Shown here in pieces: positions 2,536-27,675 of a stretch of DNA of 30,870 nucleotides (position 1 is the stretch's first letter; each line of letters starts with the position of its first letter). The stretch covers positions 1 to 30,870 of the forward strand of contig JBHLNZ010000032.1 of the NCBI GenBank assembly GCA_048941015.1. The letters run 5' to 3'. The position numbers and the translations under genes were made by a program. The notes under the pieces were generated by a model, which saw nothing but the letters and a program-made list of their open reading frames with translations, had not been told where the DNA came from and did no database searches. This DNA is from Promethearchaeota archaeon. GTDB taxonomy: Archaea > Asgardarchaeota > Lokiarchaeia > Sigyniarchaeales > SOKP01.

Positions 2536-3348
2536 TCATACTTTTAAAGTTATGGGATTCACTGTGTCTGTTTTTCCATAAGTTGGGATAATCCACATAT
2601 ACATACAATATTTTAGTTTTTTATATTGTGGTCTGGTAAAATTACAATGACCTAAATCACCAGGAAAAAAGAGTCCTTCTCCATTTTGTAAATCCTTACA
2701 AATTGAATATCCTTCAGAGTTTATTAAGTATTGAGTTATAGCGTAGGTAGGATCATCAATACACATAATATAAATCTCAGGATACTCTGGGTGAATGTGT
2801 GAATAGATTTCTTTCTTCCCATCCTTGGTCTCTTCTAAATTAACGCTTGTTATAGTTCCTTGTCTTAATGATTCATTAGGAATATTGGTAAAACCTGACA
2901 TGAAATACCCATTTTTAATAGCAGTCCAAACTGTTCGAAATGTTGCCATTTTTTCTTCAGAACCTCGTTCACCTCGCGGTAATAATTTATTCATATCAAA
3001 GTATTGTATTTCAAAAGCAGTGTTAGAGTTAGTCTTGATATTGTAAGAATAAATACAGATCTTTAGGTTCTTACGATTTTTTAACTGAGCTTTTATTGTT
3101 ATACTAGCATCTGAAGGAAGAAAAAAGAAATCAAATTGATTTAATTCATATAATTTTTGATTATAAATTATTTTAGTATTACCAGATAATAAGCATCCAT
3201 TTAATACTTCATTTATCTTTGTCCTAATTTTAAGATCTTTATTAAAATAGAAATATTTTATTTTTGACGAGTCTAATTTACGTATTATCGCGTTTTTAAT
3301 CGGATTTTCAAAATAAAAATCCATCATTTCTGATCTAGAGAACTGCAT
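2536..3348 (-). CDS. KduI/IolB-like cupin (sugar-acid isomerase family)
   Basis: Bicupin-like. Metal motif SHIHPEYPEIY, then GEGLFFPGDLGH and YMWI, as in the IolB/KduI C-terminal cupin. Substrate unknown. Confidence 0.6.
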   Translation of the reverse strand: MQFSRSEMMDFYFENPIKNAIIRKLDSSKIKYFYFNKDLKIRTKINEVLNGCLLSGNTKIIYNQKLYELNQFDFFFLPSDASITIKAQLKNRKNLKICIYSYNIKTNSNTAFEIQYFDMNKLLPRGERGSEEKMATFRTVWTAIKNGYFMSGFTNIPNESLRQGTITSVNLEETKDGKKEIYSHIHPEYPEIYIMCIDDPTYAITQYLINSEGYSICKDLQNGEGLFFPGDLGHCNFTRPQYKKLKYCMYMWIIPTYGKTDTVNPITLKV

Positions 3349-3386: not shown

Positions 3387-4595
3387 TTAAAAAAATTCAG
3401 ATGAAACTGGTGTTTGAATTCTTATAGATCTTTGAGAATTATCTTCTAATATTGAAATTAAAGCCGAAATATTTTGTTTGGTTGCATATTTAATTTCTTT
3501 TTCTTCATTTGGCTTCCAACTCTTGAATCCTGTTAGGATTGGAGCAGTTTCGAATAAACCTTCTTGTAATCCTGAAACTTTAACAGTCACGCCTTCTAAT
3601 TTCTCTTTAGAGATATTCTTTACTTTAATTATATATTTTTCTAAATCTGAATCAATGGAAACAATCTGATAAGATTTTTGGAACCGCGATGAAACCCCAT
3701 CTAATAAAGTAGGAGCTGCTGAGGGTGCTCCTGAAAATAGGTCAATATCGGACTTTGAATCAGATATATTTTTTGAGATTATTGTGATGGGTAATTCAAA
3801 TTTTATCGGTTCTCTACCAAACTCAGGCCTTTTAGTCCCAATAATCATCAACGACCATTTAGTATAATCACCAAATTTAAAACCCCAATATTCTTTTTCA
3901 GTTGGTTCCCAAAGATAATTATGACTCGGTTCAGCAATTTCAGGGACCTTCAATAATAAAAATCCTTTTTCAATATTTGAAGTTTTAGCATTTCCAGCAA
4001 TAGCAGGAGGTAATTCTTCCACTTTGCGACAAGTTTGGCCATATGCATCGCAATAACAAATTAGATTCGCTTTTTGAAGTAATCTAATTTCAATTTGCTT
4101 TAATTCCTCTGAACTAAAACTAATTTTAATTGTTTCTCCTGGTTTGAAAACATCTTTAGAAAGAAGAATATTCAATCCTGAGATAGAAAATGAAATCGGT
4201 TGTGGGGTTTTTGTTTGTATACCAGAGTCCTTAGCTTTAATTTCTATTTTCTGAGTTTTGTTTACTATTAAATCATCATCGGGATTTAGTGGATTTGGTT
4301 GTCTTAAATTTAGCTTTAATTCATACTCTAAATCTCGATTCTTAATTGTTGGTACCACATTATTTTTAACCAAAATAGATCGTTCTCTAATATATTCGCC
4401 AGCTTCAAAATTTCCTTTCGAAAAGATCTCTTCTTTCGCGATTACTAATTCTTTTACGCATGGGGGATAGGTAATTAATCGAACTCCTGCCCATAATATA
4501 GAGCTGTTCTCTACAAACTTGAATTTAGTTCTAACATTCAATTTATCTCCGATAAACACAGAACCATAATTTAAATCAGTAAGCTCTAACTTCAT
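3387..4595 (-). CDS. arrestin-fold protein (arrestin N + arrestin C) with extra C-terminal beta-sandwich domain
   Basis: N-domain pattern FEAGEY...VVPT...LEYELKLNLRQP. C-domain pattern ILLSKDVFKPGETIKI...IEIRLLQK...LKVPEIAEPS...FELPITI. Followed by an Ala/Pro/Ser linker and a ~100-aa beta-rich domain. Confidence 0.7.
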   Translation of the reverse strand: MKLELTDLNYGSVFIGDKLNVRTKFKFVENSSILWAGVRLITYPPCVKELVIAKEEIFSKGNFEAGEYIRERSILVKNNVVPTIKNRDLEYELKLNLRQPNPLNPDDDLIVNKTQKIEIKAKDSGIQTKTPQPISFSISGLNILLSKDVFKPGETIKISFSSEELKQIEIRLLQKANLICYCDAYGQTCRKVEELPPAIAGNAKTSNIEKGFLLLKVPEIAEPSHNYLWEPTEKEYWGFKFGDYTKWSLMIIGTKRPEFGREPIKFELPITIISKNISDSKSDIDLFSGAPSAAPTLLDGVSSRFQKSYQIVSIDSDLEKYIIKVKNISKEKLEGVTVKVSGLQEGLFETAPILTGFKSWKPNEEKEIKYATKQNISALISILEDNSQRSIRIQTPVSSEFF

Positions 4596-25186: not shown

Positions 25187-26095
25187 TTAATCTGTGTGAG
25201 CAGAGATTATTAAATCAGCAAATAATCTCATATCATTTAATAATGTATTCAATTTCTCTTGAGAGTCTTTATCCAATTCTCTAGTTTTCATAATCAAAAC
25301 AGAAATGATATATTTAAATATATGAAGCTCGATTTCTTTTCCATCATCATTCCGTCCTTTAAACATAGCAGAATCAGACATAAAGATGTTTTCTCTTACA
25401 GTATTGCATGAGTTGATAAAATCTCTCAAATCTCCTCTTAATGTTAACCCACTACTAACGCCTTGAACATTATGCACTATTACATTACCAGAAACATCCG
25501 ATACAATTATTTTCGCTTTAATTTCTTCCAATTTCTCCTCAGCTTTTTCAACATGGGTTTTCAAATCGGTATAAGATGATATTAAAATATCTCTGAATAC
25601 TTTTGCCAACTCATCCTGTTGATAAATGCTTGTCAGCATAAAATCGAAATCGTAATCTTTAAAAATGTCAAGAAAGATCTCTTTAGCTTTTTTAACATTA
25701 GTATCCAAAAGCTCTTTCTGATAATCCTCAGTATCATATTTATGGAGGAACAAAAAGATTTTAGGCTTTTCGTTATTTTTTCTGTAAATATCTAATAATC
25801 CAATAAAATATTCTTTTGCTTGTTCAAATGTCTTTGGATCATGTAAATCAACGATCGGAATCAAGATATCAGTGCCTCGAAAAACATCTGGCTTCTCCAT
25901 ATATTCTTTTCGATATTGTTCTTGACCTCCAAAATCAAATATTCCAACTTGAAGCCCTAAAAAGGGATGACGACGTGTTTCATATAGAATTGTTGGACTA
26001 AGACTTTTTGTATCTTCAGCACTTTTTTCAGCAAAAGCTACAGAATATAAGCTTGTTTTACCACATCCGCCTAGCCCTACTAAACTTATTTTCAT
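25187..26095 (-). CDS. Rag/Gtr-like small GTPase with C-terminal roadblock/longin-like domain
   Basis: G1 GLGGCGKTS, switch I AEDTKSLSPTI, G3 DFGGQ, G4 LHKYD, G5 TSIY. HKxD and TSI are Rag-family hallmarks. C-terminal ~120 aa begins IIVSDVSGNVIV. Confidence 0.8.
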   Translation of the reverse strand: MKISLVGLGGCGKTSLYSVAFAEKSAEDTKSLSPTILYETRRHPFLGLQVGIFDFGGQEQYRKEYMEKPDVFRGTDILIPIVDLHDPKTFEQAKEYFIGLLDIYRKNNEKPKIFLFLHKYDTEDYQKELLDTNVKKAKEIFLDIFKDYDFDFMLTSIYQQDELAKVFRDILISSYTDLKTHVEKAEEKLEEIKAKIIVSDVSGNVIVHNVQGVSSGLTLRGDLRDFINSCNTVRENIFMSDSAMFKGRNDDGKEIELHIFKYIISVLIMKTRELDKDSQEKLNTLLNDMRLFADLIISAHTD

Positions 26096-26178
26096 ATTTT
26101 ATCTTCTCTTAAGAGTTTATTTCATTTTTTATATAATTAATTATTTCATTTATTTTTTTTATAAATATCATTTCAAAT

Positions 26179-27675
26179 TTAATCTTCTTTAGGTGCTAAA
26201 TTAAATGTTCTTGAAAAAATTTTTCCAAAAGATTCTGTTGATGCTTCTACCAGCACATTTCCTTGGATTTTTTCATTTTCTTTTACTTCTAAGGGATAAC
26301 CTATATCAATTGTTTCGTAAGGAAATAATTCTTTAATAGTAGTTATCCAAGGCCTATTTTCAAATACTTCTTCTAAACTAACAATTCTTATTCTAAGATC
26401 TTCTAAAACAAAACCGATTGTATTAGTCAAGTGTATATTCAATACTTTATCTTCTTCGTCAATTTCTTTTGATACACTTAAAAATCTTTTTGTACCCAGA
26501 GCAGGTCTTGCAGCAGTTTGATCTACTTCTGGTTTGGTTTCGATCCTTGGTTCTTCCTCTTTTATATCTCTTACAATGAAAACCTTACGTTTTTGTACTG
26601 TATATTGAGAAACTTTTTTAAGTTTCGCTAAAAATAATACGGAATTCAGATTGATAGCATTAAACGGTTCAATCTTCAAATAGCCTTTGCTAGCAGCATC
26701 TTCTACTATTTCTGTACCAATTCCAGTTCTTGCAAATACTGTATTTTTATTAGGGCCACTTCCAACAGATCCAACCGAAATATCTGCATTTTCTGAGGTT
26801 AAATCAACACAAAAATTGCAACTTGAAGACTTAAATTTATCTAATTCTTTAATTGAGTAAGATTTTATTGGTTCTCCTTCTTGATCATAATAAATATGGA
26901 ATTTTCCCTTATTGATATCCATCTTTTTAATACGTGCCATATCAATACCGTCTTTTTCAAAGTAGGGATATAGCGCTTCTGGTGCGAATGAGTCCATACA
27001 AAATAATCCAATTTTTAAAATATGGGCACGCATAAAATATTTCAGCATTCCTGCTGGAGAACTTAACATTTTATCTACAGCATCGATATTACAAGGAGTA
27101 CCGACAAAAGCTATTGATCGATAATCTTGACGAATAGCATTCATTAAAGCTTCAACTGTTTGGGAATGGGAATAAATAGAACCTGAAGCTTTTATAGCAT
27201 CTTCTTTAGATGTGATGATTTGAGCTACTGGATGCCATGGGTTTTTTGGATCTTTCATTGTAACTATAGCAGCATCAATTAAGTGTTCATCAAATAAATA
27301 GCATAATAATGAAGTCACAGTTCCTCCATCTTGACCTCCTATAACTTCAGGGATATTTGTATTCGCCGCATAACCCGTCTTAAATTCTCCCATAAGTTGG
27401 ATGGGGTCTGTAATTGTTCTGGGACATTGATTATAACAAATACCACAACCTGTACACTTTCCAATAAGTTTGGGTTGTCCAGCAGCCGCATCCCATTCCA
27501 AAACAGGACAAACTGCTGCGCATGTTCCGCATTCTGTGCATATTCCTGTACGAATTATCTCTTTCATTAGCATTCCATAGGAATCTTTTTTACCTTCAAG
27601 TTTCTTCTGAATGTAATTAAAAGAATAATCATATTGAGAAGCCTTTTGTTCCTTATCAGTTTGGTTTTCAGTCAT
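26179..27675 (-). CDS. coenzyme F420 hydrogenase/dehydrogenase beta-subunit (FrhB/FdhB) family protein with N-terminal ferredoxin and extra C-terminal domain
   Basis: Two CxxCxxCxxxCP motifs, QDGGTVTSLL, VGTPC, IGLFC, CNFCVD, ADISVGSVG; about 140 aa C-terminal extension. Confidence 0.9.
   Translation of the reverse strand: MTENQTDKEQKASQYDYSFNYIQKKLEGKKDSYGMLMKEIIRTGICTECGTCAAVCPVLEWDAAAGQPKLIGKCTGCGICYNQCPRTITDPIQLMGEFKTGYAANTNIPEVIGGQDGGTVTSLLCYLFDEHLIDAAIVTMKDPKNPWHPVAQIITSKEDAIKASGSIYSHSQTVEALMNAIRQDYRSIAFVGTPCNIDAVDKMLSSPAGMLKYFMRAHILKIGLFCMDSFAPEALYPYFEKDGIDMARIKKMDINKGKFHIYYDQEGEPIKSYSIKELDKFKSSSCNFCVDLTSENADISVGSVGSGPNKNTVFARTGIGTEIVEDAASKGYLKIEPFNAINLNSVLFLAKLKKVSQYTVQKRKVFIVRDIKEEEPRIETKPEVDQTAARPALGTKRFLSVSKEIDEEDKVLNIHLTNTIGFVLEDLRIRIVSLEEVFENRPWITTIKELFPYETIDIGYPLEVKENEKIQGNVLVEASTESFGKIFSRTFNLAPKED

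Follow-up and report, generated by a model that had tools for sequence, protein, structure and literature searches.

A tailed ferredoxin–FrhB protein encoded beside a Rag-type GTPase in Asgard archaea: a candidate redox sensor

Introduction

The stretch of DNA under study (the window) comprises 30,870 nucleotides of a Promethearchaeota archaeon, positions 1–30,870 of contig JBHLNZ010000032.1 in assembly GCA_048941015.1, and all coordinates follow the numbering of its forward strand. Two neighbouring genes on the minus strand concern us here. The upstream gene (26179..27675) encodes a ferredoxin–FrhB protein of 498 amino acids with a C-terminal tail (P0001), as judged from its open reading frame (ORF), from Pfam and NCBIfam matches and from orthologues of the same family that share 64–98% identity over the full length. 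The downstream gene (25187..26095) encodes a Gtr1/RagA-like GTPase of 302 amino acids with a conserved C-terminal domain (P0002; Pfam PF04670, E 1e-23). The two ORFs are co-oriented and 83 bp apart. This arrangement had been noticed in an earlier inspection of the sequence, which also remarked that the FrhB gene stands without partner genes for hydrogenase, formate dehydrogenase or glutamate synthase; both points are confirmed by ORF coordinates and by a Pfam search of the window ORFs, which found none of these partner genes within the window. The same original prediction proposed that the redox state could be relayed to the Rag-type switch through the domain appended to the FrhB protein. Here we report that the pairing recurs across distant Asgard families, and discuss why we tentatively read the FrhB protein as a redox sensor of a Rag-centred module.

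The FrhB redox protein

P0001 has a modular architecture. Close to the N-terminus, residues 40–90 (27406..27558, minus strand) form a 2x[4Fe-4S] ferredoxin domain in which the motif CxxCxxCxxxCP occurs twice; it is matched by Pfam Fer4 and aligns to the ferredoxin domain of the solved structure 8riu_B. The core that follows (residues 102–339; 26659..27372, minus strand) comprises the FrhB_N and FrhB_C domains with a predicted FAD/[4Fe-4S]/F420 site, and is delineated by Pfam and by conserved motifs: FrhB_FdhB_N covers residues 102–177 (E 1e-20, 74.1 bits against a cut-off of 22) and FrhB_FdhB_C residues 186–339 (E 7e-41, 140 bits against a cut-off of 23.3). A variable linker (residues ~345–394; 26494..26643, minus strand), which shares 13% identity with distant orthologues compared to 45–65% in the core, leads into the C-terminal tail (residues ~395–498; 26182..26493, minus strand). 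No Pfam family matched residues 341–498.

Cysteines 195, 226, 286 and 289 and the motifs GGQDGG, SGSxY, GTPC, FC, CxxC and ADISVGS are kept in orthologues at 41–48% identity, and the cofactor motifs align with those of 8riu_B and Fsr. The source genome (G000), which is 95% complete and was scanned genome-wide (8586 ORFs), encodes the F420 biosynthesis enzymes CofH (469 bits), CofD and two copies of CofE, all scoring over their cut-offs, and coenzyme F420 should therefore be available to the organism. Both Pfam domains, the cofactor motifs and the F420-making genes identify the protein as a member of the FrhB/FdhB family, and the predicted product looks like a functional F420/FAD/[4Fe-4S] oxidoreductase.

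Two more specific assignments were considered and rejected. P0001 falls below the NCBIfam equivalog cut-offs of frhB (TIGR03289; 166 versus 331.5) and of the FpoF models (125–130 versus 444–475), and these scores, together with the lack of a hydrogenase gene in the window, argue against FrhB proper (of an FrhAGB enzyme) or FpoF. A role as an FpoF that docks onto an Fpo/Nuo-type complex is likewise unsupported, since the genome, at 95% completeness, yielded no homologue of Complex1_49kDa (NuoD).

The Rag-type GTPase

The downstream GTPase is of the Rag type according to Pfam, motifs and Protein Data Bank (PDB) ranking. P0002 matches Gtr1_RagA (PF04670) with 84.5 bits against a cut-off of 22, and across 14 orthologues the sequences GxGKTS, DFGGQ, HKYD and TSIY are invariant, the G3, G4 and G5 motifs being those of Rag proteins. 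A profile of the 14 orthologues ranks the Asgard protein LokiRagO (8YL2) first (E 3e-29), a match confined to the G domain and to a protein of a different ortholog group, followed by Gtr1/RagA (E 5e-21); RagC (E 1e-12) and Arf/Arl (E 1e-10) both rank well below Gtr1/RagA. The C-terminal region, residues ~190–302, where Rag/Gtr proteins have a roadblock domain for dimerisation, is highly conserved and is aligned only partly by sequence profiles, with Gtr2 up to position 237.

Conservation of the gene pair

Three hundred Asgard genomes sampled across the phylum were searched for both proteins and the coordinates compared; families are coded f1, f2 and so on, the window belonging to f1. The search returned 82 orthologues of the tailed FrhB. 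In 60 of these the GTPase orthologue lies directly downstream on the same strand after a gap of 76–170 bp (48 in f1, five in f10, six in f21 and one in f4), and in a further nine, all from f24, it is adjacent in convergent orientation, so that 69/82 tailed FrhB genes adjoin the GTPase. Three more (f1, f20) have it within 5 kb, most of the remaining tailed FrhB genes have it on other contigs or lie at contig ends, and in three genomes, those of f15, no GTPase orthologue was found. The same order is evident among 80 named loci of Promethearchaeota/Lokiarchaeia type, which are close, family-level relatives of the window: of the 76 whose upstream sequence is long enough, 70 have FrhB before the GTPase.

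Between families the identity drops to 41–48% for FrhB and 45–64% for the GTPase. As a control, the other window genes that flank the pair, encoding a class-III aminotransferase, a HEAT-repeat protein, two URO-D-like proteins and a thiolase, are not conserved beyond close relatives, and between families only genes of the cluster described below are kept. The pairing of FrhB and GTPase, which is kept in at least seven Asgard families, is thus beyond chance, and the conserved synteny that had been set beforehand as a test of the proposed connection is present.

These counts bear directly on the simplest explanation of the locus, namely that P0001 belongs to central metabolism as a common stand-alone ferredoxin:F420 oxidoreductase and lies beside the GTPase by coincidence. 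The genome encodes about eight FrhB paralogues, and sister forms lacking the tail, in f9 and f11, stand alone in gene contexts that are variable and uninformative. Against this, the 69 adjoining pairs involve the same GTPase orthologue across distant families, P0001 is the only paralogue in the genome with the tail extension, and the tail otherwise occurs only on proteins of the same cluster. We consider coincidence, which these data already disfavour, highly improbable.

One genus of f1 departs from the general pattern. In g3 the tailed FrhB was found in 0/4 genomes; two of these (G019 and G030) have GTPase matches that begin at residue 53 and lack the P-loop region, and the other two have no GTPase orthologue (best E about 1e-24). 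The sequences suggest that both parts of the module have decayed together.

A tail domain shared by three protein families

The original prediction held that the FrhB protein shares a ~100-residue domain with an arrestin-like protein encoded elsewhere in the window (3387..4595, minus strand; Arrestin_C Pfam match weak, E 0.0095), and at the level of profiles this proves correct. A hidden Markov model (HMM) built from FrhB tails only was run against the 8586 ORFs of the genome and matched four proteins, each in its C-terminal ~100 residues. These are the FrhB protein itself, the arrestin-like protein (E 1.4e-5), where the tail makes up the last ~100 residues (3390–3698), and two members of a longin family (c2; E 4e-13 and 3e-9). 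When the tail was compared by pairwise BLAST with the arrestin-like ORF and with every ORF of the window, nothing significant emerged (E 0.73); the kinship shows in profiles only. The longin (c2) and arrestin-like (c4) families in turn align with each other in the tail region only (hhalign 96%, E 2e-9). The tail is thus a single domain that is carried by three protein families.

An AlphaFold2 (AF2) model of the tail, with a predicted local distance difference test (pLDDT) score of 85.5, has seven strands, and this model, alignment A1 and the profile matches identify the domain as an Ig-like/E-set beta-sandwich without a Pfam family. It is rare: 138 proteins matched at E<=1e-3 among 1.84 billion representatives, mainly in length classes of ~495, ~340 and ~390 amino acids, and the most distant sequence matches are CARDB-type proteins. 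The best Foldseek matches are the lipid-binding sandwiches of RhoGDI, UNC119 and NPC2, at weak scores (E ~1e-3, TM ~0.5) that do not justify a claim of lipid binding.

The extension is conserved across eight Asgard families, as the earlier inspection had suggested should be checked. It is present in 65/68 genomes of f1 and also in f3, f4, f10, f15, f20, f21 and f24, and was not found in f2 (0/7), f7 (0/28), f9 (0/76) or f14 (0/19). A tree of the catalytic core places all tailed FrhB proteins in one clade (support 100/98) that is sister to the tail-less forms of f9, which is consistent with a single acquisition of the tail. The families that hold the tail are also those that hold the GTPase orthologue in seven out of eight cases. 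The exception is f15, where three genomes, two of them closed, have a tailed FrhB without a GTPase orthologue and without any other tail-bearing protein.

Some further observations concern the tailed proteins outside this common arrangement. In f15 (loci L051–L053) and f3 (L040) a GFO/IDH/MocA-type oxidoreductase gene lies upstream of the tailed FrhB on the same strand, and in f15 a TrmB regulator gene follows it; these are the other conserved neighbours where the GTPase is absent or elsewhere. In f24 genomes the tail is found in an additional architecture, on ORFs of 581–588 amino acids (G139:C30:21176-21466; G265:C328:1311-1613).

The larger cluster and its rearrangement

In f10, f21 and f4 the pair is embedded in a larger same-strand cluster, in the order CBS-pair protein, longin protein c2 (~350 amino acids), C25-peptidase-like protein, FrhB, GTPase and arrestin-like protein c4 (~390 amino acids), from which the f4 cluster lacks the C25-peptidase-like gene. 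The c4 proteins are the orthologue family of the window ORF 3387–4595, and their genes adjoin the GTPase, directly downstream, in loci of f4, f10, f20, f21 and of genus g4 within f1. In g4 the order runs FrhB, GTPase and arrestin-like protein, followed by orthologues of the window genes 2536–3348 and 649–1026. In the genus of the window ~20 kb (4872–25066) separate the arrestin-like gene from the GTPase, and because the two are directly adjacent in g4 (locus L038) an insertion or rearrangement in the lineage of the window is indicated. The c2 and peptidase genes of G000 lie on other contigs. Judged from gene order, the window pair is a remnant of a larger, ancestral-looking cluster.

The cluster holds a single GTPase orthologue. 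A second paralogue occurs only in genus g4, where it lies elsewhere in the genome, and a gene pair of the RagA/RagC type, as would be expected for an obligate heterodimer, was not seen in the cluster.

The genes that fill 4872–25066 in the window are unrelated to the cluster and include HAD, GNAT, amidohydrolase, GH94-like, MFS transporter, radical SAM, PAN, thiolase and URO-D-like genes. A polyferredoxin gene recurs beside the cluster in f10 (L043–L045), in f1 genus g4 (L038) and in L039 and L046. In L043–L045 and L038 it is accompanied by a second FrhB paralogue bearing an N-terminal winged-helix domain, in L046 a shorter tail-less FrhB paralogue lies near it, and in L039 it occurs without either. 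The polyferredoxin and the second FrhB paralogue are possible electron partners or regulators.

The longin protein, a CBS fusion and a hydrogenase link

Asgard longins with folliculin/NPRL2 motifs of GTPase-activating proteins (GAPs), including the GP-motif, have been proposed as GAPs for Rag or Arf-like GTPases, their partner GTPase not being known (PMC12290439). The N-terminal 240 residues of c2 were modelled (pLDDT 77.7), and the best VIA matches of the longin part are FLCN (6nzd_H) and NPRL2 (8fw5_B), with Z 11.1 and an rmsd of 3.1–3.4 over 138–144 residues. All 50 listed VIA chains are of the longin or roadblock type and the top ten Foldseek hits are all Npr2, NPRL2, NPRL3 or FLCN chains. 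Generic longins such as Sec22b score within about 1 Z unit, and since this margin is small only the longin fold is established for c2. By its modelled fold c2 is a candidate longin protein of the Rag-GAP kind.

P0146 (641 amino acids) is a longin protein with the tail, 38% identical to the f10 form, that is fused to four CBS domains; through this Rosetta-stone arrangement the cluster's CBS and longin genes are linked. A second paralogue leads towards energy metabolism: at G000:C53:4072-9761 (locus L059, 346–6035) a fusion of HdrA-like and MvhD parts is followed by the small and large subunits of a [NiFe]-hydrogenase and, as the last gene, by a longin protein with the tail. This adjacency of hydrogenase and longin genes is found in 9/30 related loci from three genera.

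The hydrogenase link lends substance to a reading in which the flow of control is reversed and the FrhB protein is a regulated output: the Rag switch and the longin protein would set the place or time at which FrhB and the longin-linked hydrogenase are assembled, docked or active, and the GTPase would thus direct how electrons move among ferredoxin, H2 and F420. Besides the longin paralogue that closes the hydrogenase operon, this reading draws on the recurrence of the polyferredoxin and a second FrhB paralogue near the cluster, on the precedent of FrhB-type modules that serve as docking subunits, such as the CODH zeta subunit and FwdI (8RIU, 8RJA; PMC11493965), and on the within-family conservation of the FrhB protein, which is greater in the core (88%) than in the tail (70%), as expected of a catalytic enzyme. 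However, no partner enzyme is conserved beside FrhB across lineages, no NuoD-type complex was found in G000, and both the CBS–longin fusion and the cluster's own CBS gene have the appearance of ligand inputs, a point in favour of sensing. We regard the regulated-output alternative as unlikely.

The intergenic gap

The 83-bp gap between the two genes (26096..26178, minus strand) contains two copies of the sequence AAATGAAATAA (26141–26151 and 26117–26127) that flank the TATA-like sequence TTATATAAAAAA. A T-rich tract in the gap had been put forward as a possible terminator. This suggestion does not hold, because the tract is T-rich on the plus strand only: the coding (minus) strand is A-rich and has no T run longer than three, which excludes an oligo-T terminator for the FrhB and GTPase genes. 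Runs of T5 or longer occur in only 12/64 related gaps. The gap element, allowing up to one mismatch, is present in 45/64 of the same gaps, 48–66 nt before the GTPase start, and is often followed by a GGTG ribosome-binding motif. Since a promoter-like element is conserved in the f1 gap, the GTPase probably has its own, putative internal promoter there. Scans of the region with sigma-70 promoter and hairpin-terminator models, which are ill-suited to archaea, gave no excess over shuffled sequence.

The AAATGAAATAA copies are direct repeats, 24 nt from start to start, and each reads as a minimal ATG-AAA-TAA start–stop frame; in relatives the middle codon of the element varies, while ATG and TAA tend to stay. 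The copies could be a regulator site, part of a promoter or a start–stop element.

Separate promoters, which FrhB and GTPase probably have, would also suit a reading in which the two proteins are not directly coupled at all. The tail would then be a self-association or localisation domain that three unrelated proteins use independently, and the gene neighbourhood would reflect shared regulation or slow rearrangement rather than a complex that includes the GTPase. In keeping with this, the f15 genomes retain the tailed FrhB alone, the closest solved relative homodimerises through its C-terminal extension (PMC11493965), the cluster is dispersed within f1 where only the pair stays together, and the tail's best, if weak, Foldseek matches are the lipid-binding sandwiches named above. 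On the other side, the two genes have stayed adjacent through an inversion (f24) and at identities down to ~45%, with every other neighbour changing, and the distribution of the tail coincides with that of the GTPase orthologue in all families except f15. Quite unlikely is how we would grade an absence of direct coupling.

A possible redox input to a Rag-type switch

Comparative sequence evidence gives good support to a functional link between the FrhB protein and the Rag-type GTPase, because synteny is conserved, the tail is shared by three families of the cluster, F420 biosynthesis genes are present and the cofactor motifs are kept. As for its nature, the ferredoxin domain would pass electrons to or from the [4Fe-4S]/FAD core, which would reduce or oxidise F420 in the manner of FrhB and FpoF, with the tail attached by a flexible linker. 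The tail is most likely a common docking or assembly domain that would bring the FrhB, longin and arrestin-like proteins onto one platform, candidates for which are the C-terminal domain of the GTPase, the tailed proteins themselves or a shared scaffold or membrane site. On this platform the FrhB protein would report the redox state of F420 and ferredoxin to the GTPase cycle and the CBS protein would report adenosine ligands, both inputs acting by way of the GAP-like longin subunit, in analogy to the sensors that lie upstream of eukaryotic GATOR1 or folliculin.

We favour this role of the FrhB protein as a redox sensor on a Rag-centred module because the CBS fusion, like the eukaryotic precedent, puts sensors of small molecules on the GAP. 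Our confidence falls a little short of even: contact between the partners, the direction of the signal and the GAP activity are steps that we infer. The relay originally envisaged therefore stands in part. The link between redox protein and switch is borne out by synteny, shared tail and cofactor motifs; the signal may pass through the appended domain, and what speaks against an obligatory link is f15, which retains the tailed FrhB in the absence of the GTPase.

Several further points weigh against a sensor role and should be set beside the evidence for it. The f15 genomes imply that the tail can work without the Rag module, and its fold matches are generic, the VIA scores against Ig-like domains of transglutaminase and GH2 being Z about 10. 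A catalytic core as strongly conserved as this one would suit a metabolic enzyme no less than a sensor. The promoter-like element in the gap and the convergent genes of f24 mean that co-transcription is not required for the association of FrhB and GTPase. A fused FrhB–GTPase protein or another long GTPase fusion was not found at E<=1e-10, which is weak evidence, and the genomes are metagenome-assembled genomes whose relatives are not independent samples.

A broader proposal builds on the redox-sensor reading. The module may be a prokaryotic forerunner of, or parallel to, the Rag–GATOR/folliculin system, with a longin GAP set by FrhB and CBS sensors, a link to hydrogenase through the longin paralogue, a lineage-specific Ig-like domain for docking, and the arrestin-like adaptor and a caspase-fold peptidase as candidate outputs. 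Taken as a whole we deem this possible, if rather improbable.

Comparison with known systems

Asgard genomes are rich in Rag-, Arf- and Rab-like GTPases and in longin and roadblock proteins. Gene order in these organisms seldom reveals which regulator serves which GTPase (PMC10933270). The cluster described here is an exception in that it names one Rag-type GTPase together with a longin protein, an arrestin-like protein, a CBS protein, a peptidase-like protein and a redox enzyme. Our literature search found no mention of FrhB or F420 together with Asgard Rag GTPases, nor of the shared tail in work on Asgard Rag-like GTPases and longins. The tail can be used as a handle, and the cluster proteins are small, soluble and testable partners for an archaeal Rag relative. 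Were the redox-sensor reading true, archaeal relatives of the eukaryotic nutrient switch would be tied to an energy metabolism of F420, ferredoxin and H2, which is central to syntrophy models of the origin of eukaryotes; were the forerunner proposal true as well, energy and redox sensing by Rag would predate eukaryotes.

The best solved relative of P0001 is the zeta subunit of the F420-reducing CODH of Ca. Ethanoperedens thermophilum (8RIU chain B; E 5e-46 over residues 36–355). Like this subunit and FwdI (8RJA), it combines, in the same order, an N-terminal 2x[4Fe-4S] ferredoxin domain, an FrhB-type [4Fe-4S]/FAD F420-reductase and a C-terminal extension (PMC11493965). In Ca. Ethanoperedens the extension consists of ~20 residues that form a homodimer contact and the module is attached to CODH or Fwd (PMC11493965), whereas here it comprises a ~50-residue linker plus a ~100-residue Ig-like domain and a Rag-type GTPase takes the place of a catabolic enzyme as conserved neighbour. 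With hydrogenase FrhB and with FpoF the protein shares the FrhB_N/FrhB_C Pfam domains and cofactor motifs, and FpoF likewise has an N-terminal ferredoxin domain; in contrast to those systems its scores are far below the equivalog cut-offs, FrhA/FrhG genes are missing from its immediate surroundings and the genome yielded no NuoD-type complex.

For the GTPase, solved Asgard Rag-like proteins are available for comparison (LokiRagO 8YL2, LokiRagM 8ZLA and 9M28). The eukaryotic Rag system differs from the archaeal module in several respects: the latter has a single GTPase gene instead of a RagA/RagC-type pair, it would respond to redox state and adenosine ligands instead of amino acids, and its shared Ig-like tail has no counterpart. 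The likeness lies in the combination of parts. As in eukaryotic Rag/Gtr with GATOR1 (NPRL2–NPRL3) and FLCN–FNIP, a Rag-type GTPase with HKxD and TSI[WY] motifs is accompanied by a longin protein whose best fold matches are FLCN and NPRL2, and, as with SAMTOR, Sestrin and CASTOR, small-molecule-binding proteins, here the CBS and FrhB proteins, appear to be attached to the module.

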